Source: Faecalibacterium sp. CAG:74 (GTDB lineage: Bacteria > Bacillota > Clostridia > Christensenellales > Aristaeellaceae). From it: DNA of 64,000 bases. The translations under genes were made by a program, and so were the position numbers. Shown piece after piece: positions 1,068 through 52,885 of this stretch (positions within the stretch are counted from its first letter, which is position 1; each line of letters begins with the position of its first letter). The stretch covers positions 133,729-197,728 of the forward strand of contig FR899900.1 of the NCBI GenBank assembly GCA_000437595.1, in the 5' to 3' direction. Below the pieces are notes generated by a model, which saw only the letters and a program-made list of their open reading frames with translations, was not told the origin of the DNA and did no database searches.

Positions 1068-1101
1068 TGCTTGTTCCTCCTCTGAGAATACAGGGAATCT
1101 G

Positions 1102-1926: not shown

Positions 1927-2194
1927 GTCTCGTTCCTCCCTTTCAACATCGGAAACAAACTCAATTCGCACCATAGCGGTGCTTTCGTGATTCAGTATAA
2001 TCCCAGCGCCTGTTTTGAACAAGGGAAAATCCAGCACTGCTATTGGGAAAATACAAAACACAACCAAACTTCTTTATGCGGTATTCGGTTTTTGTGCGCT
2101 TCCGTCAACACGGGGTACTTTTCTTTTGCATTTTCTCTGCGTATGTGCTATACTGCTTCCATCAGCACAATGCGAAATAGAAAGGACGGCATGT

Positions 2195-4045: not shown

Positions 4046-5528
4046 TGAGCGTCCCGCGCAGACGTTCATCAAAGCCATCTGCCAGAAATACTGCCCTGCG
4101 TTTGACACCATTCTGCTCTCCGGCAGCGCCGACGATGCCCTCCAGCTGATGGCGCAGCAGCACGTCCATGTGCTGGTAACGGACATCAGTATGCCGGGCA
4201 TCAACGGCATTGAATTGGCGCAGCGCGTCCGGCAGCTGTATCCGCGGACGCATACAGTGATTGTCTCCGGCTACGCGGAATTTGAGTTCGCGCGCGGGGC
4301 AATTCAGGCGGGCGTGGATGATTATCTGCTCAAGCCCGTGGAAATCCAGAGTTTCCGGCAAATTCTCGACCGAATCCGCGAAACGCTCGATGCAGAAGCA
4401 AACAACCTGATGGAGGAAACGCTGACTCGCCTGCTCTGCGGTGAAGCAGTCGATGAGCCGCTGCTCTGCTCTCTGTTTTCCAGCCGTATGATGCGCTTTG
4501 CCCTTGTCCGTCAGGGCAATTTGTTCACCGTACGCTTCGCAAAATTCCGCACAGCGCAGCTTCGTCAGGTGCATCAGGCGGGCTGGATTGCGTTTTATGG
4601 GCGCGATGAACAGGAAACCATTCTCCTGCGCAGCAGTGCCGATCGGCAGAAGCGTTTTCCCGACGAGCTGTCCGACCTGCTTAAAGCCGACTTTCCGGAT
4701 CTGCCCTGTACGGCGATTTACGCGCCGGAAGATGCCGACATTCTCACCTTGCCGCAGTTTTTGAGCCGCGCTGCAGGGCGCATGGTGAATACCGTCGTCA
4801 TCGGCAAGGGGCAGCTTGTTCCGCTGAACGCACCGCAAAGTGCCTTACAGCCGTCCGTCCTGTCCGCTGCGACAAAAAAGCGCATTGCGTCATTCGTCGA
4901 AACAGGCAATACACGGATGCTGAAAGAGCTGTTTGTGTCCCTTGCAATCGAATGGAATCAGAACAGCCTGCCGCAGATTCAGGCGGAAGACTTATGCTAC
5001 CAGCTGATTCTGTACACGGCTGACTTGGGCGTTCCCGGCCCCAAAAGGAAGCGCGAGCAGATTCTGCGCGAGGCAAACGAACTATACGGCAGCGCCTCCT
5101 CCTACGGCGACCTGCTGGCGAGCCTGTACTCCCTGATTTTTGAGGAAGGGTTCATCCGTGACAAGAACGTCAGCGCGAACGAGCTGTGCGAATACACGCT
5201 GAACTACATTCGCGAAAACTACGCCCAGCCGCTGAGCATCCCGCGTATCTGCACCGATGTTGGCATCAGCCAGACGTACCTGTCGCGCCTGCTGCGCAAG
5301 TATGCCGGAACGACGTTCAACACCTTCCTAACGCAGTGCCGCATGGACGCCGCGAAGCAGATGCTGCGTGAACATCCGGATATTCTGCTGCATGAAGTGG
5401 CGGCGTGCGTCGGGTATGACGACCAGTCGTATTTCAGCAAGATTTTCCGCAATGAAACAGGCATGACGCCATCGCAGTATGCTGCGACGTTTGCGGCAGA
5501 TGCGCCGACTCAGCCGCCGAAAACGTGA
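4020..5528 (+). CDS. response regulator with receiver domain and C-terminal AraC-type HTH (YesN-like)
   Basis: MYTILIVDDERP...DISMPGINGIEL receiver motifs, with a C-terminal AraC HTH (YAQPLSIPRICTDVGISQTYLSRLLRKYAGTTFNTFLTQCRMDAAKQML). The RBS GAGGAGGAAGACG precedes ATG 4020, and the gene overlaps the kinase stop. Confidence 0.85.
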   Translation: MYTILIVDDERPAQTFIKAICQKYCPAFDTILLSGSADDALQLMAQQHVHVLVTDISMPGINGIELAQRVRQLYPRTHTVIVSGYAEFEFARGAIQAGVDDYLLKPVEIQSFRQILDRIRETLDAEANNLMEETLTRLLCGEAVDEPLLCSLFSSRMMRFALVRQGNLFTVRFAKFRTAQLRQVHQAGWIAFYGRDEQETILLRSSADRQKRFPDELSDLLKADFPDLPCTAIYAPEDADILTLPQFLSRAAGRMVNTVVIGKGQLVPLNAPQSALQPSVLSAATKKRIASFVETGNTRMLKELFVSLAIEWNQNSLPQIQAEDLCYQLILYTADLGVPGPKRKREQILREANELYGSASSYGDLLASLYSLIFEEGFIRDKNVSANELCEYTLNYIRENYAQPLSIPRICTDVGISQTYLSRLLRKYAGTTFNTFLTQCRMDAAKQMLREHPDILLHEVAACVGYDDQSYFSKIFRNETGMTPSQYAATFAADAPTQPPKT

Positions 5529-5567: not shown

Positions 5568-5619
5568 CTTTTCATCCGTTTTTCATTGCGGAAAAAAGCG
5601 TCACTTTTGCCCGTTCCCC

Positions 5620-5701: not shown

Positions 5702-7507
5702 GTGTCCGATAGATTATCGAAGATTCGCAATTTCTGCATTATTGCCCATATTGACCATGGCAAGTCCACGCTGGCTGACCGCATTCTGGAAACGACGGGC
5801 GTTTTCCAGAAGCGCGAGATGGTGGAGCAGATTCTGGACAGCATGGAGCTGGAACGCGAGCGCGGCATCACCATCAAGTCCAAGGCGGTGCATATGCACT
5901 ATACCGCCAAGGACGGCAAAACCTACACGCTCAACCTGATTGACACGCCCGGCCATGTGGACTTCACCTACGAAGTCAGCCGTGCGCTGGCGGCGTGCGA
6001 AGGCGCGCTGCTGGTGGTGGACGCGACGCAGGGCATTGAGGCGCAGACGCTGGCGAACTGCTATATGGCGCTCGACCATGACCTCGAAATCATCCCGGTC
6101 ATCAACAAAATTGACCTACCCAGCGCGCAGCCGGAAGAAGTCCGGCAGGAAATTGAGGACGTTATCGGGCTGGATGCGTCCTATGCACCGTGCGTGAGCG
6201 CGAAAACTGGCCTGAACATCGATCAAGTGCTGGAAGCAGTGGTGAATTACGTTCCCGCGCCGCAGGGCGACGAGAACGCACCGCTGCAGGCACTGATTTT
6301 CGATGCGTTCTACGACAACTACCGCGGTGCAATCTGCTTCATCCGCGTCAAGCAGGGCACAATCCGCACGGGAATGCGGATGCGCATGATGGCGACGGGC
6401 GGCGAGTTCGACATTGTGGAAGTCGGCACGTTCGCGCCGAGCTATCAGCCGTGCGACGAATTGAAAGCGGGCGACGTAGGCTATGTCGCGGCCTCCATCA
6501 AGGATGTGCGTGAAACCCGCGTCGGCGACACAATTACCGACGCCATGAATCCGGCGGATTGCCCCCTGCCCGGCTATCGGCAGGTGACGCCGATGGTCTA
6601 CTGCGGCGTGTATCCGGCGGACGGCGCGGACTATCCGGCGCTCAAAGATGCGCTGGAGAAGCTGCGCATGAACGACGCTTCCCTCTCCTTTGACCCGGAA
6701 ACGTCCGTCGCACTGGGCTACGGCTTCCGCTGTGGCTTCTTGGGGCTGCTGCACATGGACATCATCACCGAGCGGCTGGAGCGCGAATGGGACTTGAACC
6801 TCGTCACCACCGCGCCGAGCGTCATCTACCGCATTACGAAAACCGATGGCACGGTGCTGATGTGCGACAACCCGATGGCGCTGCCGCCCATTGGCGAAAT
6901 TGCCATGATGGAAGAGCCGTTCGTCCACGCGGAAATCTTCACGCCGCAGGACAGCGTCGGCACGATTATGGACTTGTGTCAAGACCGGCGCGGCATCTTC
7001 CTTGACATGCAGTACGAGGGCACGCGCGTCAAGCTGAATTACGACATTCCGCTCAACGAAATCATCTTCGACTTTTTTGACCAGATTAAGAGCCGCAGCC
7101 GCGGATACGCCTCGTTCGACTACGAATTCAAGGACTACCGCGAGAGCCAATTGGTCAAGCTGGATATTCTGCTCAACGGCGAAATCTGCGACGCGTTCTC
7201 TATCATCGTTCACCGCGACAAGGCGTATGGGCGCGGGCGTTCCATCTGCGAGAAGCTCAAAGACGTCATCCCGCGGCAGATGTTCGAGATTCCGATTCAG
7301 GCGGCCATCGGCGGCAAGGTCATCGCGCGTGAAACCGTCAAGGCGATGCGCAAGGACGTGCTGGCAAAGTGCTACGGCGGCGACATCAGCCGAAAGAAAA
7401 AGCTGCTGGAAAAGCAGAAAGAGGGCAAGAAGCGAATGCGGCAGTTCGGCACGGTGCAAGTGCCCAGCGAGGCATTCCTTGCCGTGCTGAAGATGGACAG
7501 CAACTGA
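5702..7507 (+). CDS. lepA: elongation factor 4 (LepA), translational GTPase
   Basis: [16 protein letters not shown]1 motif, [13 protein letters not shown], and the full-length LepA C-terminal domain. GTG start with the RBS GGAGGG. Confidence 0.95.
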
Positions 7508-19992: not shown

Positions 19993-20021
19993 TTGACCTT
20001 TATCAGCTTTCCTGCTATGAT
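19993..20021 (+). promoter_or_regulatory. sigma-70 type promoter for the AraC regulator gene
   Basis: TTGACC, a 17-nt spacer, then TATGAT. Confidence 0.5.
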
Positions 20022-20055
20022 GCTTTCATAAATACCGGGACAAGGAGAAAGGCAT

Positions 20056-20946
20056 ATGACAAGGAAACATCCAGCACATGAGCTTGAGGAAGATGTGCTG
20101 GTTCGCACAAGCAACATGGGGCAAGGGCGCTCGGATTATGAAGCGTTTCACACGCTGTCGCCCGCCATCCACCTGCGCGAAATCCATACGCATGATTTCT
20201 TTGAGCTGTATATTCACCTAAACGGCTTTCCCCGCCTGTATGTGGACAACAAAATCGTCACGCTCCAGCGCGGCAGCCTGATGATTTTCCCGCCATTCGT
20301 CATGCACGGCATAATCTCGCAGGACACCATCCGCAACTACGAGCGAGTGGTGCTGTTCATCTCCTCCGGGATGCTGCACCAGCTGGGGCAGGGACTTCTG
20401 CCGCTGGAGCAGCGCCTTTTGGACTGCACGCGCCGCACCGGGTATCATTATCAGCTGGATGAAGCGGCGCTTTCGCTGTGTACAACGTGCATTGACCGTG
20501 TGGCGCAGAACACAGGCGACGAGCGTCCCGAATCGCGCTTGGCGGATTATGCCGCGATGACCGAGTTTCTGCTGCAAATCCTCCGCGTGACGCAGGAAGC
20601 GCCAATGCTGCAGAGTGCCCAGCCCTCGCCAGACACCATCCAGCGCGTGATGGCGTACATCAACGAGCATTACGCCCAGCCGCTGACGCTGGAGGAAATT
20701 GCGGACGCGTTCTTCATCAGCAAATCGTACCTGTCACACGAGTTTGTCCGTTACACGAACACGTCGGTGTACGAGTACATCCAGTTCCGGCGCATCTGTG
20801 GCGCGAAGCTGCTGATTGCCTCCGGCGTATCGCTGACGGATGCTGCATTCCAGAGCGGGTTCAATTCGTACTCCTCCTTTCTGCGCACTTTTCGCAAAAC
20901 AGCAGGCATTTCGCCGACGGATTTCCAGCGAAATCTTGGCAAATAG
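20056..20946 (+). CDS. AraC family transcriptional regulator (cupin sensor domain + AraC HTH)
   Basis: N-terminal cupin-like domain and C-terminal HTH_AraC (YAQPLTLEEIADAFFISKSYLSHEFVRYTNTSVYEYIQFRRI). Confidence 0.85.
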   Translation: MTRKHPAHELEEDVLVRTSNMGQGRSDYEAFHTLSPAIHLREIHTHDFFELYIHLNGFPRLYVDNKIVTLQRGSLMIFPPFVMHGIISQDTIRNYERVVLFISSGMLHQLGQGLLPLEQRLLDCTRRTGYHYQLDEAALSLCTTCIDRVAQNTGDERPESRLADYAAMTEFLLQILRVTQEAPMLQSAQPSPDTIQRVMAYINEHYAQPLTLEEIADAFFISKSYLSHEFVRYTNTSVYEYIQFRRICGAKLLIASGVSLTDAAFQSGFNSYSSFLRTFRKTAGISPTDFQRNLGK

Positions 20947-20995
20947 CTTTTGCATTGTCGAATACGGATAATTTTTTCCCAGATATATCTGCACG

Positions 20996-21052
20996 ATTTG
21001 CATAGTAGTGTGGACAATTTGCATAGACGCGCCGCCCTTTCTCCGCTATAAT
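20996..21052 (+). promoter_or_regulatory. candidate AraC-type operator (two direct repeats ATTTGCATAG spaced 21 bp) overlapping the -35 of a TATAAT promoter for the esterase gene
   Basis: ATTTGCATAG occurs at 20996-21005 and again at 21017-21026. TATAAT is at 21047-21052, the right distance from the second repeat for class II activation. Confidence 0.45.
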
Positions 21053-21138
21053 GAGGGTAACTTCCGGATGAGGTAATGCAGCCGTCGCCTCCCGGACAAT
21101 GTGCAAAGGTTCGGCTGAAAGAGAAAAGGAGGATCTCT

Positions 21139-23919
21139 ATGAAACGATTTTTCCTGCTGCTGCTCGCTGCTATCATCGGGCTGCTGCCGCTGATGAGCGC
21201 CTGCGCTGAAGCGCCGCTGGACGGGTATCCCGGCATTGATGAGCTGCCCGCCATCGACACAATCAACAATCCATTTGAGTTTTTCGACGTGAAGAATGAC
21301 CCGAACGGCGACGGCATTGTGACCGACATCACCGAATGGGAAGCGCGCCGCACCGAAATCCGCGATTTGATCCAGCACTACTGGCTGGGCTACCGCTGGG
21401 AAACCGCGGCGGAGGACGTGTCTGGCAAGTACGAGATTGTCTACGAGGACAACACCGCGTCCTACGGCGGCTTCTATGGAATTTGGGGCACTTGCGTCTT
21501 CAACCTCGGCGACGAGTTCCGCAAGTTGTCCGCTGCGCTGCTGGAAGGTGAAGTGACGGTGGGCGACAAGACGTTCGGCCCTGCATCCACCAAGGCGGAA
21601 GCCAAGCAGCTTGCCATCGAGGCGTGGAACGCGGGCTACTCCGTCCACTACATTGGCGAACCGCCGTGGGGCACGGAAGGCGACGCGGTGTTCGTGAACA
21701 CCACCGGCGCGATTACCGCGGAAACCATCCCCGCCCGTGTGCGCCCCGTGTATCAGGCGGTCATTACCATCACGAATCCGGAAACGGGCGCAAAGGCGAG
21801 CTTCGCCGCGAAGCTGAATGTGCCCACGGATGCGCAGATTCTGGCGGCTTGGGGCGAAGAGAAGGATCAAGTACCGTTCGTGATTGATATCGGCGGTACC
21901 TCCGCATTCTCTGCTGCGAACTTGAACGGACAGGGCTACGGTCTGGTGACGTTCAAAGCCACTGACATTTACCCCGATGACTCCAATGCGGATGACGGCA
22001 TTGACCGTGCTGGCGTGTACACCACGCTCTACCCCTACGACGCGAACGACTACAAGCACGCATCCGGCGCACTGATGGCGTGGAGCTGGGCGGCCAGTCA
22101 GATTGTGACCGCCTTGGAAAACCAGGCAGAGGGCACGAGCCTGACGCTGGGCGAGCTGGTTCGCCTTGACCCGGCTAAGACCGTCATCACGGGTCATTCC
22201 CGCTACGGCAAGGCCGCCATGTTCACCTCGGCGTTTGACGACCGCATCAGCATCTGCGTGCCGAGCGAATGCGGCGGTTCGGGCATCCAGAGCTACCGCT
22301 ACAAGGTGGAAGGCAAGATTTTCAACTTCAACACCTCCGCCTACGCCAAGGCTGACCGTGTCTACGGCAAGACCGAAGTGCCGACCGTGTCCTACGGCAA
22401 GGGCAACAGCTGGTTCCCGGAGACGGCTGCTATGTTCGTCGCCCGTGACAACCAGATTCCGTTTGACCCGGTGGAAATCATCGCGCTGGTTGCGCCACGC
22501 CCCTTCTTCACCGTGTCAGGCATTGACACCCACTGGCTGGGCAATGAAGGCGCTGTCGCCAGCATGGTTGCAGCAGAAGAGGTTTACGATTTCGTCGGCA
22601 CGACGGAAATCGAGAAAAACAACATTGCTGTTCGTGCCCGCCAGAGTGACCACGTCTTCTACCCGCGTGACTTCTGCTTTGCGCTGGCGATTATGGATCG
22701 CGAATTCAAGCAGACGGACGACAAGCTGCTGCATGTGAAGGATCTGTTCCCGGAAGGCACTGGCATTTCCGGCATGTCCTACCCGGCGGCGGATTACGCA
22801 ACCATCAGCGAACTGAACGACTACCCGTTTGACATCAATTCTTCCTACATCCCGTGGTCTGCCGAAAGCAAGTACACGCTGTGGACGGCGCAGGAAACCT
22901 TCCTGACGAACCACAATGTTACCATTACCGCGCATTCCGACGCGCCCGACGTGGTGCTGGTGCTGCCGGACGGCAGGGAAGTCGCCGCCGCTTCGCACGA
23001 GGGTGACGTGTTCACCTTCACCTTGACTGCCGAACAGTCCGTCTACGGGCGCTACGAACTGCGCACCGTCGGCACGGACAAGGCGGCGCACAGCGTCTAC
23101 TTCTCCGCCGTTTCGCTGGCGGATGCGCTCCGTCACGGCACGACGAAGGGCGACGAGGGCGAAGAGAACCGCGTGCTGGGCTTCGCGTCCCGTCTGGCGA
23201 ACACGAAGGAGAATCCCCCGCTGGTCTACATCGGCAGCGAAACCGAACCCGCTTCTATGATTTTCACACCTGAACGTGTGGTGCCGGAAGACACGAGCCT
23301 GCTGGAATACGGCATTCTGTTCCACGACGCGCTGTTTATCCGCATTGCAAACGCTGGCTGGGACGCTTCGCAGACCTTCAAGGTGAAGAACCTGAAGTTT
23401 GTCTCCATGCCGGAATACACCTTCGAGTTCTCGATGGCGGACATTGCCGCTTCCGCTGAAAACAACGGCAAGCAGGATGCTGCGCTGTTCACCAAGCCGA
23501 TTTCTTGGAACGCTGAGCGCTACAACAACGGTTTCTCGCAGGTGTGGCCCGCGATTCCGGATACGCTGGAAGAGCGGCAGGCGCTTGAACGCGGCGAAAC
23601 CATCACCCGCCCCGAAGCGCCCGAAAAGACCGTGACCGCCTTTGACGCGACCGTCTCCGGCAAAGCGGCACTGTCGGACACCGCGCTGACCATCACGCTG
23701 ACCTTCTCCGAAGCGCTGCGCACGGGTGAATACGCTGTCGGCATGGACATTGCCGAAGCGTGGGAAACCGCGTGGAATGCGGACGGCACGCAGATGACGC
23801 TGACCGTCCCCGCGGACGCGCTGAATGGACAGCACACCGTGAACCTCATCATCTTCCGCCTGATGGATACCGATGGCAACCTCATCGGCGGTCCGGTGGA
23901 ACTGCATTTGGACTTCTAA
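21139..23919 (+). CDS. large secreted lipoprotein with a carbohydrate esterase family 15 (glucuronoyl esterase)-like catalytic domain
   Basis: The start was trimmed to MKRFFLLLLAAIIGLLPLMSAC (lipobox-like) after AAAGGAGGATCTCT. The motif TGHSRYGKAA matches the CE15 G-C/H-S-R-x-G nucleophile motif. The 927-aa protein carries extra N- and C-terminal beta-rich domains. Confidence 0.55.
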   Translation: MKRFFLLLLAAIIGLLPLMSACAEAPLDGYPGIDELPAIDTINNPFEFFDVKNDPNGDGIVTDITEWEARRTEIRDLIQHYWLGYRWETAAEDVSGKYEIVYEDNTASYGGFYGIWGTCVFNLGDEFRKLSAALLEGEVTVGDKTFGPASTKAEAKQLAIEAWNAGYSVHYIGEPPWGTEGDAVFVNTTGAITAETIPARVRPVYQAVITITNPETGAKASFAAKLNVPTDAQILAAWGEEKDQVPFVIDIGGTSAFSAANLNGQGYGLVTFKATDIYPDDSNADDGIDRAGVYTTLYPYDANDYKHASGALMAWSWAASQIVTALENQAEGTSLTLGELVRLDPAKTVITGHSRYGKAAMFTSAFDDRISICVPSECGGSGIQSYRYKVEGKIFNFNTSAYAKADRVYGKTEVPTVSYGKGNSWFPETAAMFVARDNQIPFDPVEIIALVAPRPFFTVSGIDTHWLGNEGAVASMVAAEEVYDFVGTTEIEKNNIAVRARQSDHVFYPRDFCFALAIMDREFKQTDDKLLHVKDLFPEGTGISGMSYPAADYATISELNDYPFDINSSYIPWSAESKYTLWTAQETFLTNHNVTITAHSDAPDVVLVLPDGREVAAASHEGDVFTFTLTAEQSVYGRYELRTVGTDKAAHSVYFSAVSLADALRHGTTKGDEGEENRVLGFASRLANTKENPPLVYIGSETEPASMIFTPERVVPEDTSLLEYGILFHDALFIRIANAGWDASQTFKVKNLKFVSMPEYTFEFSMADIAASAENNGKQDAALFTKPISWNAERYNNGFSQVWPAIPDTLEERQALERGETITRPEAPEKTVTAFDATVSGKAALSDTALTITLTFSEALRTGEYAVGMDIAEAWETAWNADGTQMTLTVPADALNGQHTVNLIIFRLMDTDGNLIGGPVELHLDF

Positions 23920-23932
23920 TCCTTGAATCCCC

Positions 23933-23968
23933 TGCCCGTGGCGACGTAAAATCGTCACGGGCTTTTTT
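23933..23968 (+). terminator. rho-independent terminator
   Basis: GCCCGTGGCGACGTAAAATCGTCACGGGC hairpin followed by TTTTTTG. Confidence 0.75.
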
Positions 23969-24077
23969 GTTCCCGGCAAACTTCATTTTCGCTTCCTCGT
24001 AACTTCACATTGGCTTCATCCAATTGTGTCATAATTGCTTCCGGAACATCCATGAGATGGAAGGAGTCAGAGGAACT

Positions 24078-24917
24078 ATGAAGAAGACTGGAAAAATCAT
24101 TGCCATCATCGTCGTGCTTGCGCTCGTCGTGAGCGGCGTTTTCCTTTTTGCGGGTGGACGGAAAAATGCGGCTTACAGCGAGGAAATCGCCCGCACGCAG
24201 GACATCAGCACCTATTACACCTTTTCCGGCAACCTGTCGACAAAGGACAGCCAAATCGTCACCTCCACCGCAAAAACAACCGTCAAAGAGTGCCTGTTCT
24301 CCGAGGGCGACGCGGTGAAGAAGAACGACATTATCCTCAAATTTTCAAGCGGCGGCACGGCACGCGCGCCGATGGACGGCACGCTCTCGAACCTCTACGT
24401 CGAGGAAGGCGACGAGGTGACCATGGGGCAGCAGCTGCTACGTGTCGCAGATTACAGCAATCCGCAGATTGTGTTCAACGTGGATGAATACGACCGTCCG
24501 GCGCTCTCCGTCGGGCAGGCGGCGGATGTGACCGTGCTGTCCACTGGCAAGATGCTCACCGGCACCATCACCCGCATTGCGCAGGAAGCAACCGTATCCG
24601 GCGACTTGGCGTACTACGAGGTGACGATGACCGTGCCGCAGGACGGAACGCTCGCCATGGGCTTGAGCTGCGAAATCCGCGTGCTGTACCAGAGCGTGAA
24701 GAACGTTACGACCGTGTCGATTGACGCGATTCAGTACGATTCGGACGGCAAGCCGTTCGTCTACTGCTACGACCGCAAGGACGATATTGTACAGCAGCGC
24801 GTGACACTGGGCATCAACAACGGCTCGATTGTCGAAATCGTCGACGGCATCCGCACGGGCGAAGCGGTGTTGATTCCCGTGAAGAACACAATGGAAATGC
24901 CCATGATGCATTATTGA
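24078..24917 (+). CDS. efflux transporter periplasmic adaptor subunit (HlyD/MacA family, membrane-anchored)
   Basis: The start was trimmed to MKKTGKIIAIIVVLALVVSGVFLF (TM anchor) after GGAAGGAGTCAGAGGAACT. It has biotin-lipoyl-like and beta-barrel segments and sits upstream of the ABC ATPase and permease. Confidence 0.75.
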   Translation: MKKTGKIIAIIVVLALVVSGVFLFAGGRKNAAYSEEIARTQDISTYYTFSGNLSTKDSQIVTSTAKTTVKECLFSEGDAVKKNDIILKFSSGGTARAPMDGTLSNLYVEEGDEVTMGQQLLRVADYSNPQIVFNVDEYDRPALSVGQAADVTVLSTGKMLTGTITRIAQEATVSGDLAYYEVTMTVPQDGTLAMGLSCEIRVLYQSVKNVTTVSIDAIQYDSDGKPFVYCYDRKDDIVQQRVTLGINNGSIVEIVDGIRTGEAVLIPVKNTMEMPMMHY

Positions 24918-24935
24918 CGGAAAGGGGCATTCACC

Positions 24936-25628
24936 ATGGCGGAAAATATTCTGACAATGGAGAACATCGTCAAAACATACAAAATGGGCGATGAACAGCA
25001 GACGGTTTTGAAGGGCATTGACCTGCAGGTGGACAAGGGCGAATTTGTCGCCATTCTTGGCCCCAGCGGGTCGGGCAAATCAACGCTGATGAACATCATT
25101 GGCTGTCTGGACACGGCAACATCCGGCACATACCACTTGCATGGGCGGGACGTATCCGCGCTGAGCGAATCGGAGCTGGCGCGCGTGCGGTCAAAGGAAA
25201 TCGGGTTCATCTTCCAGTCGTTCCAGCTGCTTCAGCGTCAGGACGCGCTGCAAAACGTGGAACTTCCGCTGATTTACGCGGGCATGAGCGGCCACGAGCG
25301 CGCCGCGCGGGCGCAGCAAATGCTGGAGCGCGTCGGTTTGAAGGACAAGATGCACCACTTTCCGAACCAGCTTTCCGGCGGACAGCAGCAGCGCGTCGCG
25401 ATTGCCCGCGCGCTGGCGAACAACCCGACCATTCTGCTGGCGGACGAGCCGACGGGTGCGCTTGACCGGGCGACGGGACGGCAGGTGATGAGCCTCTTCC
25501 ATGACCTGAACGACGAGGGGCGCACGATTATCATGATTACGCACGACATTGAGATTGCCCGCCACGCGCGGCGCATTGTGCGCATCCTTGATGGGGAAAT
25601 CAGTGAAGGAGTGGTGGAAGATGCTTAA
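24936..25628 (+). CDS. ABC transporter ATP-binding protein (MacB/LolD-like)
   Basis: Walker A GPSGSGKST, signature LSGGQQQRVAIARAL, and Walker B ILLADEPT. Confidence 0.9.
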   Translation: MAENILTMENIVKTYKMGDEQQTVLKGIDLQVDKGEFVAILGPSGSGKSTLMNIIGCLDTATSGTYHLHGRDVSALSESELARVRSKEIGFIFQSFQLLQRQDALQNVELPLIYAGMSGHERAARAQQMLERVGLKDKMHHFPNQLSGGQQQRVAIARALANNPTILLADEPTGALDRATGRQVMSLFHDLNDEGRTIIMITHDIEIARHARRIVRILDGEISEGVVEDA

Positions 25629-26811
25629 AGAGAGCATTCGCATGTCGTGGCAGAACATCCGCGGCAACAAAATGCGCACCTTCCTGACGATGCTGGGCAT
25701 CATCATCGGCGTGACAGCGATTATCGCGCTGATTACGACGGTCGGCAGCGCAACGGGCGAAATCACGAGTCAATTCTCTGCCTTGGGCGCAGGTAAAGTG
25801 AGCGTAAGCATCAGCGGCACAGCCATCAAGCATGGGCTGAACGAAAGCGACCTCGCGCACATTGCTGCGCTGGACAATGTGGCGGGTGTTGACCCAAATG
25901 TCTCCCTGCGCACCTATGCCGCGCAGGACGGTCAGCTTGTGGAGGATGTGACGCTGGAGGGGCGCAGCAACGACTATTTTTCCGTGCAGGATGACCTGAT
26001 TGGGCGCGGTCGGGCGCTGAAGGCGATTGACATGGATCGTTCGAGCCATGTTTGCATCATCGACCAGACCTTGGCGTCCGCTGCCTTCCCGAACGAAGAC
26101 CCGCTGGGGCAGTCGCTGATTCTGCACGGGCAGCAGTTCACCGTCGTCGGCGTGCTGAGCGAGGACAGCGGAAGCGACCTGATGGCTGCCATGTCTGCCA
26201 GCAGCGACGGCGGCAAGGCGATTGTCCCCTATCCGGCGGCGATGCGGCTGAGCGGCTCAAACACCGTGCGGTCGCTGACGCTGTACTTGAAGGACTCGTC
26301 GTTATCCTCCGAAACCGTCGACAATGTGAAGCAGCTGCTGGACAGCGCGTTCAACTACCGCGACAGCGCGTACTCCATCATCAATCTGGACAGCCTGCTG
26401 GATACGATGAACAGCATCACCGGCATGATGACGACGATGCTGGCGGGCATTGCGTCGATTGCCCTGCTGGTTGGCGGCATCGGCATTATGAACATGATGC
26501 TCGTCTCCGTCAGCGAGCGAACGACGGAAATCGGCCTGCGCAAGGCGCTCGGCGCGCGTCCGGGGCTGATTCAAATGCAGTTCCTGATGGAATCGGTCAT
26601 GCTGTCGCTCATGGGCGGGTTCATCGGCATACTGGTAGGCAATCTCGTCTCGTGGATGATTGCAATGGCGCTGGATATTACCTTCCAGCTCAACGCAGGC
26701 GCAATCACGCTGGCGTTCGTGTTTTCCGCCTCGGTCGGCATTCTGTTCGGCTGGGCACCCGCGCGCAAGGCTTCACGGCTGAATCCTATTGATGCTTTGC
26801 GGTCGATGTGA
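25621..26811 (+). CDS. ABC transporter permease, FtsX/MacB-type
   Basis: The start ATG overlaps the ATPase stop (ATGCTTAAAG). It has an N-terminal TM, a large extracytoplasmic MacB_PCD-like domain, and a C-terminal FtsX 3-TM bundle. Confidence 0.85.
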   Translation: MLKESIRMSWQNIRGNKMRTFLTMLGIIIGVTAIIALITTVGSATGEITSQFSALGAGKVSVSISGTAIKHGLNESDLAHIAALDNVAGVDPNVSLRTYAAQDGQLVEDVTLEGRSNDYFSVQDDLIGRGRALKAIDMDRSSHVCIIDQTLASAAFPNEDPLGQSLILHGQQFTVVGVLSEDSGSDLMAAMSASSDGGKAIVPYPAAMRLSGSNTVRSLTLYLKDSSLSSETVDNVKQLLDSAFNYRDSAYSIINLDSLLDTMNSITGMMTTMLAGIASIALLVGGIGIMNMMLVSVSERTTEIGLRKALGARPGLIQMQFLMESVMLSLMGGFIGILVGNLVSWMIAMALDITFQLNAGAITLAFVFSASVGILFGWAPARKASRLNPIDALRSM

Positions 26812-26846
26812 TATAATAGAAGCATCAGCACAAGGAGGTTTCCGCC

Positions 26847-27521
26847 ATGTTTACGATTCTGGTGGTTGAGGATGACGCGCCGCTGCAGCGGATGATGAGC
26901 GCGTTTCTGGGGTTGAACGGCTTTTCAGTCGTCGGGGCTGCCAACGGCGAGGAAGCGCTGAACGCCATCGACAAGGTGATGCCCGATCTGGTCATTGCCG
27001 ACGTGATGATGCCGGTGATGGATGGCTGGGAACTGACGCGTGAACTGCGCCGCTGCTATCCGCGCCTGCCCATCATGCTGGTGACGGCGCGCGACACCAT
27101 TGAGGACAAGCGGACGGGCTTCACCTCCGGCGCGGATGACTACCTGACCAAGCCGGTCGATTTGGACGAGCTGCTGCTGCATGTGCAAGCGCTGCTGCGG
27201 CGGTCGCAGGCCATGACGAGCCACCAATTGACCATCGGGCAGACGCACTTGGATTACGATTCGCTGACCGTGCAGCGCGGTGACACGCTGCTGACGCTGC
27301 CGAAGAAGGAGTTTTTCCTGCTCTTCAAGCTCCTGTCCAGCCCGATGCAGATTTTCACGCGCCGGCAGCTGATGGACGAAATCTGGGGCATGGATGCGCA
27401 GAGCGACGAACGCACGGTGGACGTACACATCAAGCGTCTGCGCGAAAAGTGCGAGATTTTCCCTGATTTCAGCATCGTGACAGTGCGCGGCTTGGGCTAC
27501 AAGGCGGTCAAGAATGGATAA
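26847..27521 (+). CDS. OmpR-family response regulator
   Basis: ILVVEDD, DVMMP receiver motifs and a winged-helix C-terminus (SIVTVRGLGYK). RBS AAGGAGG. Confidence 0.9.
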   Translation: MFTILVVEDDAPLQRMMSAFLGLNGFSVVGAANGEEALNAIDKVMPDLVIADVMMPVMDGWELTRELRRCYPRLPIMLVTARDTIEDKRTGFTSGADDYLTKPVDLDELLLHVQALLRRSQAMTSHQLTIGQTHLDYDSLTVQRGDTLLTLPKKEFFLLFKLLSSPMQIFTRRQLMDEIWGMDAQSDERTVDVHIKRLREKCEIFPDFSIVTVRGLGYKAVKNG

Positions 27522-28893
27522 GCGCCGCATCATCCGCAAACCGTACTCCTTCCGCGGGCGCATGATTGCGGCGCTGATGATTGGCTCGCTGCTGGCAACC
27601 GTCATCAGCCTGTTTCTCGCCTTCTGCGTGACGCACATCAACCTCTTGCAGGAACTGAAAGTGCGTGAGCGCGCCGTCGCCATCTACCTGATGGAACTGG
27701 AACAGCGCACGGAGCTGAGAACAGACGAATTAGCCCGCTTGGTGGAGCAGAACGGCATCGAAGTCGCTGTGCTGTCGGACGAGGATGTCGCTGCCCTGTC
27801 CGCGGGCACGCAGCGGGAGCTGAAACGCGCGGGCATTGCCTACGAATCGACGACGTGGAAATCGCAGCGAAATCCGGTAACGTATGTGCAGATGCGCACA
27901 GGCGTCCTTGCAATTACCGCTGGCGGCGACGGCAGCAGCTACGGCATCGCGTTTGCGCGCATTATCTTCGGCTCAACCAGCTTTCTGGCAGTCTTTGCGC
28001 TGATGGTGACGCTGGCATCCTCCTGGATTTCCAAGCCCGTTCATGAAATCACGAATGCGACTCGCAAGGTCAAAGAGGGCGACTTCACCGTCAAACTGGA
28101 TGCCGCCCACGCGCCGGGCGAAATAGAGGAACTCATGCGTTCCTTTAACGCCATGACCGACGCGCTCAGCCGAACGTCCTACCTGCAGAAAGACTTCATC
28201 AGCTCCATCAGCCACGAATTCAAAACGCCGATTGCGTCCATCCGAGGCTTTGCGCGGCTGCTGCAAATGCCCGGCTTGACCGAGGCGCAGCGGCAGGAAT
28301 ATGTGGACTTAATTGCGCAGGAAAGCGACCGCTTGTCGCGCCTGTCGCAGACGCTGCTGCGCCTGTCCGCGCTGGAGCAGCAGTCCGCGCCCGCGTCGCT
28401 GAAGGAGTTTTCGCTGGATGAGCAGCTTCGTCAGGTCATCCTGCGCTTAGAACCGACATGGAGCGCGCGCGGCATCAGCTGGCAGCTGGATTTGAACAGC
28501 GTTACCGTCGTGTCGGACGAAGAGCTGCTCAGCCACGTCTGGATGAACATCATCCAAAACGCCATCAAGTTTTCGCCGGAGAATGCAGTTATCGAGGTGC
28601 GCGTGTTCGCCACAGATACGGCGACCGTTGAGATTACCGACCACGGCATCGGCATGGACGACGCGACCGTGAAGCGCATTTTCGACCGTTTCTATCAGGC
28701 AGACCGATCCCGCAAGCAGGAGGGTGTCGGCTTAGGGTTGTGCCTCGTCAAGCGGATTTTGGATATGCTTGGCGGCACAGTATCGGTTGACTCGCGCCCC
28801 GGCGAAGGCTCCACCTTCCGCATCCACGTCCCTTTCCGGCCCAAATATGATGAGGCCGCACACACTGGCGAAAGAGAGGGTAAAAGCCCATGA
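27514..28893 (+). CDS. sensor histidine kinase (TM-HAMP-HisKA-HATPase_c)
   Basis: H-box SHEFKTPIASI, with N, G1 (DHGIGMD) and G2 boxes. Its start overlaps the regulator stop. Confidence 0.9.
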   Translation: MDKRRIIRKPYSFRGRMIAALMIGSLLATVISLFLAFCVTHINLLQELKVRERAVAIYLMELEQRTELRTDELARLVEQNGIEVAVLSDEDVAALSAGTQRELKRAGIAYESTTWKSQRNPVTYVQMRTGVLAITAGGDGSSYGIAFARIIFGSTSFLAVFALMVTLASSWISKPVHEITNATRKVKEGDFTVKLDAAHAPGEIEELMRSFNAMTDALSRTSYLQKDFISSISHEFKTPIASIRGFARLLQMPGLTEAQRQEYVDLIAQESDRLSRLSQTLLRLSALEQQSAPASLKEFSLDEQLRQVILRLEPTWSARGISWQLDLNSVTVVSDEELLSHVWMNIIQNAIKFSPENAVIEVRVFATDTATVEITDHGIGMDDATVKRIFDRFYQADRSRKQEGVGLGLCLVKRILDMLGGTVSVDSRPGEGSTFRIHVPFRPKYDEAAHTGEREGKSP

Positions 28894-29567
28894 ACACCGA
28901 TTCGCAGCATCTTCAGCAGGTCAGCGAGGAATTTCAGCGCATGGTGGAGGAATTTTTTCTGGTGCAGTCGCGCTACTCCGCCGCAATCAAGGAGATTCAG
29001 ACGAAGCTCGAAATCCTTGATGACGAGTTCCAAATGCGTCATCGCCGCAATCCCATCCACCACATGCAGAGCCGGCTGAAAACCATCCAGTCGATGCTGG
29101 AGAAGCTAAAGCGCAAGAACTACGAAGTCAGCATCAACAGCGCCGTCAAAAACTTGCAGGATATTGCCGGCATCCGCGTTATCTGCTCGTATGTGCAGGA
29201 CGTGTATACCATTGCGAACCTGCTGGTCAGCCAAGACGACGTGCATTTGGTTCGCATGGCGGATTACATCCGCGAGCCGAAACCGAACGGCTACCGCAGT
29301 CTGCATTTGATTGTTGAAATTCCTGTTTTTCTCTCCGAAGGGCGGATTCTTGTACCCGTCGAGGTGCAGATTCGCACGATTGCCATGGACTTCTGGGCTT
29401 CGCTGGAGCATTCGCTCCGCTACAAGGCGCAGGAGTACATTCCGCAGCACATTTCCGACGAATTGCAGCGCGTCGCGACGGACATTGCATCCCTTGACCA
29501 GCGGATGCAGGCGATTCACGATCAGGTGGACGAGCTGAGCGACGCGCGCAGTGACAACGCCACATAA
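28890..29567 (+). CDS. small alarmone synthetase, RelA/SpoT-domain GTP pyrophosphokinase (RelQ/RelP/YjbM-YwaC class)
   Basis: 225 aa single-domain protein with GIRVICSY, YRSLHLIV and EVQIRT synthetase motifs and no hydrolase domain. Its ATG overlaps the kinase stop (ATGA). Confidence 0.85.
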   Translation: MNTDSQHLQQVSEEFQRMVEEFFLVQSRYSAAIKEIQTKLEILDDEFQMRHRRNPIHHMQSRLKTIQSMLEKLKRKNYEVSINSAVKNLQDIAGIRVICSYVQDVYTIANLLVSQDDVHLVRMADYIREPKPNGYRSLHLIVEIPVFLSEGRILVPVEVQIRTIAMDFWASLEHSLRYKAQEYIPQHISDELQRVATDIASLDQRMQAIHDQVDELSDARSDNAT

Positions 29568-29589: not shown

Positions 29590-30264
29590 ATGGAACAGTA
29601 CCCGAAGAAACTGCCACCGCAGGTGGACAGCCGTCTGCGGCACAGTATCCTTGAAATGCCCATAGAAATCCGCAAGGCAAGCGGCATCGTGATTTACGGG
29701 CGCCGCATCAAGAGCCTTGTTTTTACGACCGATTTGGCGATTATCAAGAACTGCGACGCGGACGCGGTGTTCGCCGTCTATCCATTCACGCCGCAGCAGT
29801 CCATCAGCGATGCGATTATCAAAGCGTCCTATATTCCCGTTTTCTGCGGCGTGGGCGGCGGAACGACGCAGGGGCTTCGCACCGTTTCGCTCGCGAAGGA
29901 TGCCGAAGCGCAGGGGGCAATGGGCGTTGTGCTGAATGCGCCCGTATCGAACCTGAATCTGCTCGCGGTCTCGAAGGCGGTGGACATTCCTGTCATCATC
30001 ACCGTGATTGACGAAGTGACCGACATTGGACAGCGGATTGCATCCGGTGCGTCGATTCTCAACGTCGCGGGCGGGGCGAATACCCCGGCGATTGTGCGAA
30101 AAATTCGCACGGAGTACCCGGATTTTCCGATTATCGCCACCGGCGGCAATAAGCCAGATACCATCGCCGCGACGGTTGCGGCAGGCGCGAACGCGATTAC
30201 GTTTACGCCGCCATCCGCACAGGAACTGTTCAAAGCGATGATGACCCGTTATCGGGACGAGTAA
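29590..30264 (+). CDS. hypothetical protein, predicted phosphate-binding TIM-barrel-like fold
   Basis: 224 aa. The alternating beta-alpha pattern ends in IIATGGNKPDTIAATVAAGANAITF, reminiscent of the ribulose-phosphate-binding barrel phosphate clasp. No confident family assignment is possible from sequence alone. Confidence 0.45.
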   Translation: MEQYPKKLPPQVDSRLRHSILEMPIEIRKASGIVIYGRRIKSLVFTTDLAIIKNCDADAVFAVYPFTPQQSISDAIIKASYIPVFCGVGGGTTQGLRTVSLAKDAEAQGAMGVVLNAPVSNLNLLAVSKAVDIPVIITVIDEVTDIGQRIASGASILNVAGGANTPAIVRKIRTEYPDFPIIATGGNKPDTIAATVAAGANAITFTPPSAQELFKAMMTRYRDE

Positions 30265-30324: not shown

Positions 30325-30756
30325 ATGCTGGGCTTTCTTTCTGCAATTCTGGCAGGCGCGGCGATGAGCGTGCAGGGCGTAATGAACACGCGCCTTGGCG
30401 AAAAGGTGGGTACGCTGGAGACGAACGCATTTGTGCAGCTGATCGGTTTTTTGCTGGCGCTGCTCATCGCGGTTTTCTTCGGCAAAGGCAACATCCGACT
30501 ATTGCCGCAAGCGCCGTGGTATGCGTGGCTGGGCGGTGTACTCGCGCCGGTTATCACGCTGACAGTGATGTGGGCGATTGGCAGCCTGACACCGACGGTC
30601 GCAATTTCCGCAATTTTGCTCTCACAATTGACCGTTGCCGCGCTGATTGACGTATTCGGCTGGCTGGGCGCGGAGAAAATGCCGTTCTCGTGGGAGAAGT
30701 GGGTCGGCGTGGCGCTGATGGTGGGCGGTGTCATCCTGATGAAAATCAAGACGTGA
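30325..30756 (+). CDS. DMT-superfamily small membrane transporter (DUF606/YdcZ-like)
   Basis: 143 aa with four hydrophobic helices. The start was trimmed to ATG 30325 after CAGGAGGTGTCGTTTG. Confidence 0.6.
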   Translation: MLGFLSAILAGAAMSVQGVMNTRLGEKVGTLETNAFVQLIGFLLALLIAVFFGKGNIRLLPQAPWYAWLGGVLAPVITLTVMWAIGSLTPTVAISAILLSQLTVAALIDVFGWLGAEKMPFSWEKWVGVALMVGGVILMKIKT

Positions 30757-30904: not shown

Positions 30905-31231
30905 ATGCTGCAATCCATCCGCGATGGCGATCGGCTGATTGTGCGCATCGGCGGCGAGCTCGACCACTTCTGCGCACAGAGCGTTCGCCGCGACTTAGAC
31001 GCGCTGCTGCTTGACCGCTCCGTCCGCACGCTGATTCTGGACTTCTCGTCGCTGACGTTCATGGACTCCTCCGGCATCGGGGTTGTCCTGGGGCGCTATC
31101 GGCTGCTGCGCGACCGGGGCGGGCACGTCGCGATTGTGGGCATGAACCCGCACATCGCTCGGCTATTCCACATGTCCGGGCTTGACCGGATTATCCGCCA
31201 GCTGGACAAGCATCAGGAGGCGCAAGCATGA
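30905..31231 (+). CDS. spoIIAA: anti-sigma factor antagonist, STAS domain (SpoIIAA-like)
   Basis: 108 aa, close to SpoIIAA throughout (LDFSSLTFMDSSGIGVVLGRY). RBS ACAGGAGGT. Confidence 0.85.
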   Translation: MLQSIRDGDRLIVRIGGELDHFCAQSVRRDLDALLLDRSVRTLILDFSSLTFMDSSGIGVVLGRYRLLRDRGGHVAIVGMNPHIARLFHMSGLDRIIRQLDKHQEAQA

Positions 31232-31665
31232 GCCATCACAACGAAATGGAAATCCGATTTCTCTCCCTGCCCGAAAACGAAGCCTTCGCGCGCGTCGTGA
31301 TTGCCGCCTTTGCCGTCCAGCTCTCCCCGACTGTCAGCGAAATTGCCGACATCAAGACCGCCGTCTCCGAAGCTGTCACGAACGCCATCGTCCACGGTTA
31401 CGAGGGCACGCGCGGCACGGTTATCCTGCGCGCAAGCATTGACGGCACGCTGCTGACCATTGAAATCACCGACAAGGGACGCGGCATCGCCGACATTCCG
31501 CAGGCGATGGAGCCGTTTTTTACCACGCACCCCGAACAGGAACGAAGCGGCATGGGTTTTGCCGTCATGCAGACGTTCATGGACGACCTGCGCGTTACAT
31601 CCACTCCCGGTCAGGGCACAACCGTGCGGATGAAGAAGCGGATTCTGACGACGCCGATTATGTAA
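31228..31665 (+). CDS. spoIIAB: anti-sigma F factor / serine-protein kinase (SpoIIAB-like)
   Basis: 145 aa, with strong similarity to SpoIIAB over its full length (ESFARV.., TAVSEAVTNAIVHGYE, ERSGMGFAVMQTFMDDL). Its start overlaps the spoIIAA stop. No sigma gene follows. Confidence 0.85.
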   Translation: MSHHNEMEIRFLSLPENEAFARVVIAAFAVQLSPTVSEIADIKTAVSEAVTNAIVHGYEGTRGTVILRASIDGTLLTIEITDKGRGIADIPQAMEPFFTTHPEQERSGMGFAVMQTFMDDLRVTSTPGQGTTVRMKKRILTTPIM

Positions 31666-31672
31666 AAGAAAT

Positions 31673-31706
31673 GGACTGCTCCGCATTTGAGAGCAGTCCA
31701 TTTTCT
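31673..31706. terminator. bidirectional rho-independent terminator
   Basis: AAATGGACTGCTC..GAGCAGTCCATTTT hairpin between convergent genes. Confidence 0.75.
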
Positions 31707-32935
31707 TATGCTTTTTTCTGCTTGCGAATGTCAAGCACCGCGTCGAGGATATCCTCAGCGAGCTGCTTTTTCGTCCGCAGCGGATACTCGGTCTGGCTGT
31801 CCGGCGTGATGAGCGTGGCAATGTTCGTATCAACATTGAATCCTGCGCCGGGCTGGCTGACGTCGTTCAGAACAATCAGGTCAAGATGCTTGCTTTCCAG
31901 CTTCCGATGCGCGTTTTGGAGCAGGTTCTCCGTTTCCGCCGCGAAGCCGACAAGCACCTGCCCCGGCCTTTTCGCCGCACCGACCGCCGCCGCAATATCC
32001 GGGTTCTCCACCAGCTCGACAACGAACGGCTGTCCGTCGTGCGCCTTCTTGTGCTTCTGCGGATACGTCACGGCGAAGCGGTAATCCGCCGGAGCCGCCG
32101 CTTGAATCACAACGTCCATGTCGGGCGCAGTCGTCGTGACCGCGTCGAACAAATCCTGCGTGCTTTCCACACGGCGGATGTCAATGCCGTCCGGCACGGG
32201 CGCTGTTGTGCTGCCCGCAATCACCGTCACCTGCGCGCCGCGGTTTCTCGCCGCCTCAGCAAGGGCAAAGCCCATTTTGCCGGAGGAATCATTGGTCATG
32301 TAGCGCACAGGGTCAAGGCGTTCGCGCGTTGCCCCTGCTGTCACCAGCACACGCAGACCCGCGAAATCGCGCTTCGGGCAGAGCAGGGAGACAATCGCGC
32401 GCACGATGGTTTCCGGCTCACTCATGCGGCCCGCACCCGTATCGCCGCACGCCAAAAAGCCCGCTTCCGGCCCTGCAAAATGCACGCCGCGGGCTTTCAA
32501 GGTCTGCACGTTCTGCTGCGTCACCGCTGCCGTCCACATGCCGGTGTTCATGGCAGGGGCAAGCAGAATCGGCGCTTTCGTCGCCAAGACGGTGGTGGAC
32601 AGCATATCGTCCGCAATGCCGCACGCCATCTTCGCCATGATATTCGCCGTCGCGGGCGCAATGGCAAAAACATCCGCGCGTTTCGCCAGCGCGATATGCT
32701 CCACCTCCCATGTCTCCGGGCGCGCGAACGTGTCCGTGACGACGGGATGGTTGCTCAGCGTTTCAAACGTCAGCGGCTGCACAAACTGCGCCGCGTTTTT
32801 CGTCATGATGACGTGCGTCTCCACGCCGAGCTTGCGCAGACGGGAGACAATTTCGCAGCTCTTGTAGACCGCGATGCCGCCCGTTACGCCCAGCACCACA
32901 TGCCGCCCGCGCACGTCGGGAAGTTCACAGCACAT
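31706..32935 (-). CDS. coaBC: bifunctional phosphopantothenoylcysteine decarboxylase / phosphopantothenate-cysteine ligase
   Basis: 409 aa with an N-terminal flavoprotein domain (GVTGGIAVYK) and a C-terminal DFP ligase domain. Confidence 0.9.
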   Translation of the reverse strand: MCCELPDVRGRHVVLGVTGGIAVYKSCEIVSRLRKLGVETHVIMTKNAAQFVQPLTFETLSNHPVVTDTFARPETWEVEHIALAKRADVFAIAPATANIMAKMACGIADDMLSTTVLATKAPILLAPAMNTGMWTAAVTQQNVQTLKARGVHFAGPEAGFLACGDTGAGRMSEPETIVRAIVSLLCPKRDFAGLRVLVTAGATRERLDPVRYMTNDSSGKMGFALAEAARNRGAQVTVIAGSTTAPVPDGIDIRRVESTQDLFDAVTTTAPDMDVVIQAAAPADYRFAVTYPQKHKKAHDGQPFVVELVENPDIAAAVGAAKRPGQVLVGFAAETENLLQNAHRKLESKHLDLIVLNDVSQPGAGFNVDTNIATLITPDSQTEYPLRTKKQLAEDILDAVLDIRKQKKA

Positions 32936-51653: not shown

Positions 51654-51734
51654 TGCAGTCGTTATGGAAATTGCAATTTGTTTATCGCTACCGAGCCGGA
51701 AAACCCGGCTGTATCACAAGAAGGAGAGTTCAAC

Positions 51735-52850: not shown

Positions 52851-52885
52851 TGATTCCCTGTTGGGCTGAAGGGAGTGGATTCCGC

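Follow-up and report, generated by a model that had tools for sequence, protein, structure and literature searches.

The stretch of DNA that was analyzed (64,000 nucleotides (nt) of contig FR899900.1 of Faecalibacterium sp. CAG:74, hereafter the window) encodes a small alarmone synthetase (SAS) of the RelP class as the last gene behind an OmpR-family response regulator (RR) and a sensor histidine kinase (HK), and these three genes are preceded by those for a MacB-type efflux pump. The linkage between the two-component system (TCS) and relP is real and is probably functional; it has a precedent in another organism, and the pump is an optional part of it. With moderate confidence, we take the locus to be a stress-sensing cassette of the form P1(operator)-[hlyD-abc-ftsX]-P2-RR-HK-relP(-orf7-ydcZ), in which P1 and P2 are predicted promoters. 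That relP would be co-transcribed and induced in a regulator-dependent manner appears, as judged from the sequence, reasonably probable as well.

A RelP-class synthetase linked to a two-component system

The synthetase (225 amino acids (aa); 28890..29567 on the forward strand, like all features that are described below between 23934 and 30756) has the RelA_SpoT domain (residues 61-182 of 225; E 1e-34) as its sole Pfam match above cutoff, and hydrolase, TGS and ACT domains are absent. Its closest relatives of solved structure are RelP of Staphylococcus aureus (6EWZ; E 6e-61, 209 bits), to which the protein is 49% identical over 194 residues, and YwaC/RelP of Bacillus subtilis (6FGK; 1e-53, 185 bits). 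YjbM/RelQ of B. subtilis trails these two (2e-38, 135 bits), and the score on the NCBIfam equivalog for YjbM is below the cutoff (181 vs 320). By these matches the synthetase classifies as RelP and is closer to RelP than to RelQ, which narrows the RelQ/RelP assignment that was made in an earlier note on this DNA. The Pro130 of its G-loop aligns with the Pro in the 'HPKENGY' sequence of the S. aureus enzyme, a position that is presumably taken by His111 in B. subtilis RelQ.

The residues of S. aureus RelP that bind ATP and Mg2+ have been described (R78, K80, S84, K88, R91, D107, R112, E174 and H190; Steinchen et al. 2018, PMC5794853). All nine are identical in the synthetase of the window (R62, K64, S68, K72, R75, D91, R96, E158 and H174, respectively) and they are also invariant in 12 homologues. 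Read in this way the active site is intact, and a synthetase lacking catalytic residues, which the earlier note had named as a reason to abandon its proposal, is not what was found. RelP enzymes lack allosteric stimulation by pppGpp (PMC5794853), and the output of the enzyme is therefore expected to track its expression level. The identical synthetase protein is present in thousands of metagenome assemblies.

The TCS encoded directly upstream consists of an RR of 224 aa (26847..27521; Response_reg 1e-28, Trans_reg_C 2e-20) and an HK of 459 aa (27514..28893; HAMP-HisKA-HATPase_c in Pfam). The RR connects a receiver domain, with the acidic pocket D9/D10 and the phospho-acceptor D52 (in 'VIADVMMP'), to a winged-helix output domain, and its closest solved structures are RegX3 and MtrA. 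In the HK, two transmembrane (TM) segments surround an extracytoplasmic domain of around 105 aa, which is followed by HAMP, HisKA (with H234, in 'SHEFKTPI') and HATPase_c. Going by the Pfam domains and the translations the pair constitutes a TCS of the OmpR/EnvZ class. With respect to a named family, the NCBIfam search returned only sub-threshold matches (MtrA, PhoB and PnpS) and the PDB search only generic ones of the OmpR/PhoR class. Orthologues of the HK are 40-60% identical to the window kinase; the H-box, H234 included, is invariant in an alignment of 9 full-length orthologues, and a comparison of the N-terminal regions of 14 orthologues showed that the sensor domain keeps E47, T66, L68, P121 and T123.

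The order, strand and coordinates (24078-29567) that had been assigned to the six genes were borne out by the open reading frames (ORFs), by the Pfam and NCBIfam domains and by public gene calls, which list the same six products on 10 metagenomic contigs that encode the identical synthetase. The earlier note counted four overlapping junctions while naming only three, and three were found. The genes of the ATPase and the permease share 8 nt (ATGCTTAA), those of the RR and HK likewise share 8 nt (ATGGATAA), and those of the HK and the SAS share 4 nt (ATGA), such that the start codon of relP overlaps the stop codon of the kinase gene. The remaining gaps measure 18 nt (HlyD/ATPase) and 35 nt (permease/RR). 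A search of the HK-relP junction for promoter-like or terminator-like sites revealed none. Neither a terminator-like structure nor a stable fold was detected in the 35-nt permease-RR spacer or in the spacers relP-orf7 and orf7-ydcZ further downstream (z-scores of -0.4, +0.4 and -0.5, respectively), and an Rfam scan of the whole window recovered no riboswitch or leader RNA, including no ppGpp/PRPP (ykkC-type) element. The 5' boundary of the unit is the intrinsic terminator of the preceding glucuronyl-esterase-like gene (23934..23972), an 11-bp hairpin with 8 G-C pairs that is followed by TTTTTTGTT.

To follow the conservation of this arrangement, an alignment of RelP homologues was used to scan genomes, at one per species, and the ORFs of the 80 loci returned were searched with the window proteins; 8 further RelP homologues with 70-76% identity were looked up by contig. 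The order pump-RR-HK-SAS was recovered in L011, L013 and L016 (SAS identity 73, 67 and 62%, respectively) and the order RR-HK-SAS, lacking the pump, in L015 (64%), and within the 80-locus scan the linkage between TCS and SAS was gone below an SAS identity of around 60%. All 8 further homologues were found in the order RR-HK-SAS-ydcZ-spoIIAA-spoIIAB, with the pump in L092, L093 and L178 and without it in L091, L094, L175, L176 and L177. Together with the window these constitute a set of 13 loci (the window, L011, L013, L015, L016, L091-L094 and L175-L178). The distance between HK and SAS ranges from -8 to +65 nt within this set and is +20 nt or less in 12 of the 13. As a control on specificity we used an alignment of the HK orthologues as query on metagenome contigs: the matches listed were mostly HK paralogues at 35-45% identity, and among these an SAS was almost never present downstream. 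The physical linkage between synthetase and TCS that had been claimed is thus real and tight, it involves a catalytically intact SAS, and it is kept in diverged relatives. The conservation of gene order, which had been put forward as a check, held in part: RR-HK-RelP is kept in all 13 loci, and the pump accompanies it in 7 and is missing from 6.

The adaptor of the pump is a membrane-fusion protein of the HlyD/RND-MFP type with an N-terminal TM segment (279 aa, 24078..24917; HlyD_3 and HlyD_D23 in Pfam, RND_mfp in NCBIfam). It scores 105.6 bits on RND_mfp against a cutoff of 94.9, has MacA as closest solved relative (E 1e-10), and is of the YknX type according to its precomputed Pfam families. 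The ATPase (230 aa, 24936..25628) is of the MacB/LolD/FtsE type (ABC_tran E 4e-36; N-terminal half of MacB E 2e-84). The MacB-type permease (396 aa, 25621..26811; MacB_PCD 9e-31, FtsX 5e-21) has a MacB_PCD extracytoplasmic domain (residues 20-238) and an FtsX domain with four TM segments (residues 277-389). Its relatives in the PDB are MacB 5LIL (4e-59) and the Streptococcus pneumoniae permease 5XU1 (7e-41), and it aligns over its full length to 5LIL and 5NIK. Encoded together, adaptor, ATPase and permease make up a MacB-type (type VII) ABC exporter.

The same parts (a HlyD-type adaptor, an ATPase and a 4-TM permease with the MacB core domain) are found in MacAB(-TolC) of Escherichia coli, YknXYZ of B. 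subtilis and Spr0693-0695 of S. pneumoniae. E. coli MacB, however, fuses the ATPase to the permease, whereas they are separate polypeptides here. In addition, the adaptor is short, its match to the lipoyl domain is uninterrupted, and a long alpha-hairpin for docking to TolC is probably missing from it. At the locus no gene was found for a TolC-like outer-membrane channel, a component that is not expected in a Gram-positive cell. Considering the lack of a TolC gene at the locus and the fact that the host belongs to the Clostridia, the pump is MacAB-like in the sense of YknXYZ and Spr0693-5, and not a tripartite MacAB-TolC system.

An operator-like repeat and two predicted promoters

Between the terminator and hlyD lies a putative operator for the RR (23981..24019), which consists of four CTTCNY units (CTTCAT, CTTCCT, CTTCAC and CTTCAT) at 11-bp spacing. 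The last two of these form an exact TTCAY-N6-TTCAY sequence (hereafter the box), and the predicted -10 element of promoter P1 (TGTCATAAT, an extended -10; 24027..24035) is found 10 nt 3' of it. P1 shows no -35 consensus, as is expected for an activator-dependent promoter. In the related loci, the TTCAY-N6-TTCAY direct repeat, with its 11-bp period, ends 8-10 nt upstream of the -10 hexamer. The exact box at this conserved spacing to the -10 was encountered in 11 of 12 loci, located before hlyD in 6 of 6 loci that have a pump and available sequence on its 5' side, and before the RR gene in 5 of 6 loci lacking one. Between loci, the 25 nt on the 5' side of the box have an identity of only 27%, which equals random level; the box itself is conserved, as are an AG that precedes the second half-site and the -10 hexamer (TAnAnT in all 11 loci). 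Within the window the TTCAY-N6-TTCAY motif has 3 matches, where 0.48 are expected. The occurrence of one shared repeat before either the pump or the RR fits a single regulatory unit.

A second promoter, P2, is predicted inside the locus (26789..26817; TTGATG-17-TATAAT with a TG extension). It has 10 of 12 matches to the consensus, is the best site in the region, and extends from the end of the permease gene into the 35-nt spacer. Sites of the form TTGnnn-17-TGnTAT(A/C)AT also precede the RR gene in L011, L092 and L093 and in all five of the pump-less loci L091, L094 and L175-L177. In these five, P1 and P2 stand in tandem, with P2 following the box promoter by just a few bases. The layout that the loci seem to have in common is P1(box)-[pump]-P2-RR-HK-relP and, given the consensus-like promoter in the permease/RR spacer, the pump genes and RR-HK-relP probably represent two nested transcription units rather than one simple operon.

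The box is not restricted to relP genes with an adjacent TCS. In 76 loci whose relP-type gene lacks such a TCS, the 300 nt on the 5' side of that gene contained 6 boxes in forward and 4 in reverse orientation, whereas 0.2 and 0.3, respectively, are expected on basis of 500 dinucleotide shuffles, which amounts to an enrichment of around 20-fold (10 vs ~0.5). The loci concerned are L019, L022, L026, L036 and L044 (forward) and L023, L045 and L072 (reverse), and in L022 and L036 the box is separated from the -10 by 10 nt, the same spacing as in the window. For L047 and L119, where related TCSs are encoded divergently from relP, no convincing box was seen in the shared intergenic region. Tentatively, and we consider it rather unlikely in this broad form, relP could belong to the regulon of a family of OmpR-type regulators that read TTCAY-N6-TTCAY, by an older or wider rule in Clostridia and relatives; in the window a single activator site would then drive detoxification, sensor amplification and alarmone synthesis as one transcript. 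The repeat described here resembles the HssR box in its presumed form (GTTCATATT-N2-GTTCATATT).

As to the two other matches in the window, the one at 34947, inside the coding sequence of brnQ, was regarded as a chance occurrence. The other (5571-5586) is intergenic; it is located just past a terminator and around 115 nt 5' of a 601-aa ORF (5702-7507), with a spacing to the nearest -10-like hexamer unlike that at the pump promoter, and may reflect chance or a second target.

Stress cassette, shared neighbourhood or basal circuit

In the mechanism that we propose, the kinase would sense an extracytoplasmic cue via its outer domain of ~105 aa. Judging from the MacB/YknXYZ-type exporter and the behaviour of analogous modules, the cue would probably be a compound that acts on the envelope or is antimicrobial, although our confidence in the nature of the signal is much lower than in the induction of relP. 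The kinase would then phosphorylate the OmpR-type regulator, which would bind the repeat as an activator of the class-II type and fire P1. The transcripts from P1 would cover the pump genes and, considering that the 35-nt spacer between permease and RR contains no terminator, may read through into RR-HK-relP, which would result in positive autoregulation as well as in the induction of RelP. P2 would supply basal amounts of sensor, regulator and RelP. More relP mRNA would yield more (p)ppGpp/pGpp and a lower level of GTP; the cells would hence grow more slowly or become more tolerant during the removal of the compound by the pump. The earlier note envisaged a dedicated circuit that runs from stress to efflux to alarmone production. 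The link between TCS and SAS and the shared repeat agree with such a circuit; the pump, on the other hand, is not obligatory, being absent from 6 of the 13 loci, and there is a P2 in the spacer. The chain from stress via efflux to alarmone production is a putative one.

Several points weigh against the stress-sensing cassette. Co-transcription, read-through from P1 and induction have all been deduced from the sequence, the sensor domain of the kinase matches no characterised family, and L015 lacks the box. Other such points bear at the same time on an alternative in which the genes share a neighbourhood only: an ancestral relP-ydcZ-spoIIA block would have received, or have retained, a mobile pump and TCS of the hitPQRS type (see below) between itself and yigZ, and relP would be expressed from the constitutive P2 or from a promoter within the kinase gene that has escaped recognition, and not be induced by the signal of the pump. 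The relP-ydcZ(-spoIIAA-AB-sigF) block is indeed found without a TCS in L017, L018 and L020, and the orthologous cassette of pump, RR and HK without any SAS in L098. Moreover, the whole region (aspC-tyrS-yigZ ... ydcZ-spoIIAA-AB ... radical-SAM-TetR) is syntenic in the window and most of these relatives, the trio being kept in different flanks only in L013, L015 and L016, and in view of this wide synteny the conserved adjacency says less about functional coupling than it would seem to. P2 is close to the consensus and could make the expression of relP largely constitutive, and in L016 a strong hairpin is present between the permease and RR genes, which may insulate RR-HK-relP from P1 in that lineage.

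Nevertheless, the spacing of -8 to +20 nt between HK and relP in 12 of the 13 loci leaves no room for an intergenic promoter, and in the pump-less loci the box is found directly before RR-HK-relP, so that relP would be induced together with an autoregulated TCS. In addition, in the three loci with rearranged flanks the trio has survived. On balance, we regard a shared neighbourhood without functional coupling as unlikely.

Another alternative accepts the coupling but changes its purpose: the TCS would tune RelP to a physiological or population cue in a basal or growth-phase circuit that is unrelated to antimicrobial stress, and the pump would be an unrelated member of the regulon or export a compound made by the cell itself. 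Most of the (p)ppGpp that Streptococcus mutans forms in the exponential phase stems from RelP (PMC4963387, PMC7545056). The dispensability of the pump is in line with a basal circuit, and so is the kinase, which has a true extracytoplasmic sensor domain instead of the short loop of the transporter-dependent (Bce-type) kinases. MacB/YknXYZ/HitPQ-type exporters that are encoded beside a TCS, however, typically are detoxification modules, and the RelP genes that were studied so far respond to envelope stress. A basal circuit appears quite improbable to us.

Finally, some single-domain SASs belong to toxSAS families, and RelP genes are sometimes associated with prophages. A toxic SAS, which would act in a toxin-antitoxin module or in phage defence and have unrelated neighbours, is nevertheless hardly conceivable and was rejected on the RelP class and the missing partner gene: the best matches are the housekeeping RelP/YwaC enzymes (E 1e-53 to 6e-61), RelP was shown to be non-toxic (Jimmy et al.), the conserved neighbours are the HK upstream and ydcZ downstream with no small conserved antitoxin-like partner, and the locus lies in a conserved chromosomal core region beside tyrS and spoIIA with no phage genes in the flanks.

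Flanking genes, known systems and significance

Downstream of relP, at a distance of 22 nt, the window contains orf7 (29590..30264), which encodes an uncharacterised beta/alpha-barrel-like protein of 224 aa and may be co-transcribed with relP. The protein has no Pfam match, and its fold, predicted at low confidence (AF2 pLDDT 59), gave generic TIM-barrel matches in Foldseek (TM-score ~0.5; aldolase/PEP-mutase/DERA). The family is very strongly conserved, with more than 7000 homologues of which the best-scoring are around 80% identical. Its position between relP and ydcZ is lineage-specific, as orf7 is absent there in all other loci; elsewhere a homologue is found between lrgAB and a cation-efflux gene (L179/L180). 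The next gene encodes a DMT_YdcZ family membrane protein (143 aa, 30325..30756; Pfam DMT_YdcZ 5e-34). Within the clade ydcZ is the usual downstream neighbour of relP: the relP-ydcZ pair is kept in 14 loci (among these L014, L017, L018 and L020), some of which lack the TCS, and it is thus more widely distributed than the TCS-relP link.

Further downstream (31228-31760) spoIIAA-spoIIAB are followed by a terminator hairpin and by coaBC on the opposite strand, and not by sigF, which is located directly 3' of spoIIAB in the nine related loci with sequence there (L011, L014, L092-L094 and L175-L178). Elsewhere in the window the sole sigma-like ORFs (51654-53986) gave a weak match to sigF (50 bits), which suggests that sigF was lost or relocated in this lineage. 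On the upstream side, the gene for an AraC-type regulator and that for a protein of 947 aa (21076-23919), which contains a glucuronyl esterase domain of the fungal type, are located between yigZ and the pump (~20000-23919), whereas in the relatives yigZ directly adjoins the pump or RR genes. A gene for plant-cell-wall degradation would seem to have been inserted here in this lineage specifically.

The earlier note held, with S. aureus and B. subtilis as its examples, that SASs are not genetically fused to a sensing system. As a general statement this is contradicted by S. mutans, where, according to the accounts of Lemos et al. 2007 given in PMC4963387 and PMC7545056, relP is co-transcribed with the TCS relRS, two genes from the ABC exporter operon rcrRPQ with which it is cross-regulated. 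As in the window, a RelP-class SAS is combined with an OmpR/HK-type TCS and has ABC exporter genes close by. The order, however, is relP-relR-relS in S. mutans and RR-HK-relP, with a stop/start overlap, here, and the exporters are a MarR-controlled pair of ABC exporters in the former and a pump with HlyD adaptor and MacB-type permease, placed between the predicted inducible promoter and the TCS, in the latter. An order like that of S. mutans (relP-RR-HK-ABC) was observed in L074 of the Lachnospiraceae member Petralouisia muris (146-4500), the RR and HK of which are no more than distantly paralogous to those of the window (86 and 72 bits, respectively). The unrelated TCS of this locus suggests that a TCS was recruited to relP independently more than once.

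The architecture of the locus is similar to that of hitPQRS of Bacillus anthracis (and of hssRS-hrtAB), in which the transporter genes are followed by those of the RR and HK and the promoter contains a direct repeat; the likeness is one of architecture. Vancomycin, targocil and further envelope stressors elicit a response of the hitPQRS system, which shows cross-talk with the heme system HssRS-HrtAB, and the direct repeat 5' of the ABC transporter genes is the target of the TCS encoded downstream (PMC3968170). In contrast to the window, no alarmone synthetase is attached to hitPQRS, and HitPQ and HrtAB lack a HlyD-type adaptor. Envelope-responsive control of relP/sasA has also been described for VraRS in S. 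aureus and for WalRK/sigma-M in B. subtilis (PMC10117726, PMC6606846, PMC5794853). Here too a RelP-class synthetase, set mainly by its abundance, is raised by an envelope-responsive regulator, but these regulators act in trans on an unlinked relP, whereas in the window relP is the last gene of the predicted unit of the sensor itself. The operon structures of RelP are known to vary between genera (Jimmy et al.). What sets the case described here apart is the position of the SAS as last gene of the sensor's predicted unit with a stop/start overlap, the facultative pump between an inducible and a constitutive promoter, as predicted, and the retention of the arrangement in a clade of gut Clostridia.

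The SASs of Firmicutes are controlled mainly by the amount that is made, and their inducers are known for no more than a few pathogens. In the window a sensor, a regulator, a likely operator and a synthetase are present on one short stretch of DNA, in a lineage of human gut Clostridia that is very abundant and uncultured or poorly studied, and the loci with and without a pump form natural pairs for comparison. The finding overturns nothing; it extends the precedent of S. mutans relPRS and the paradigm of VraRS/WalRK to another clade and a different architecture, and would provide a testable route by which an external cue could, via (p)ppGpp, lead a gut commensal to arrest its growth or to tolerate antibiotics.

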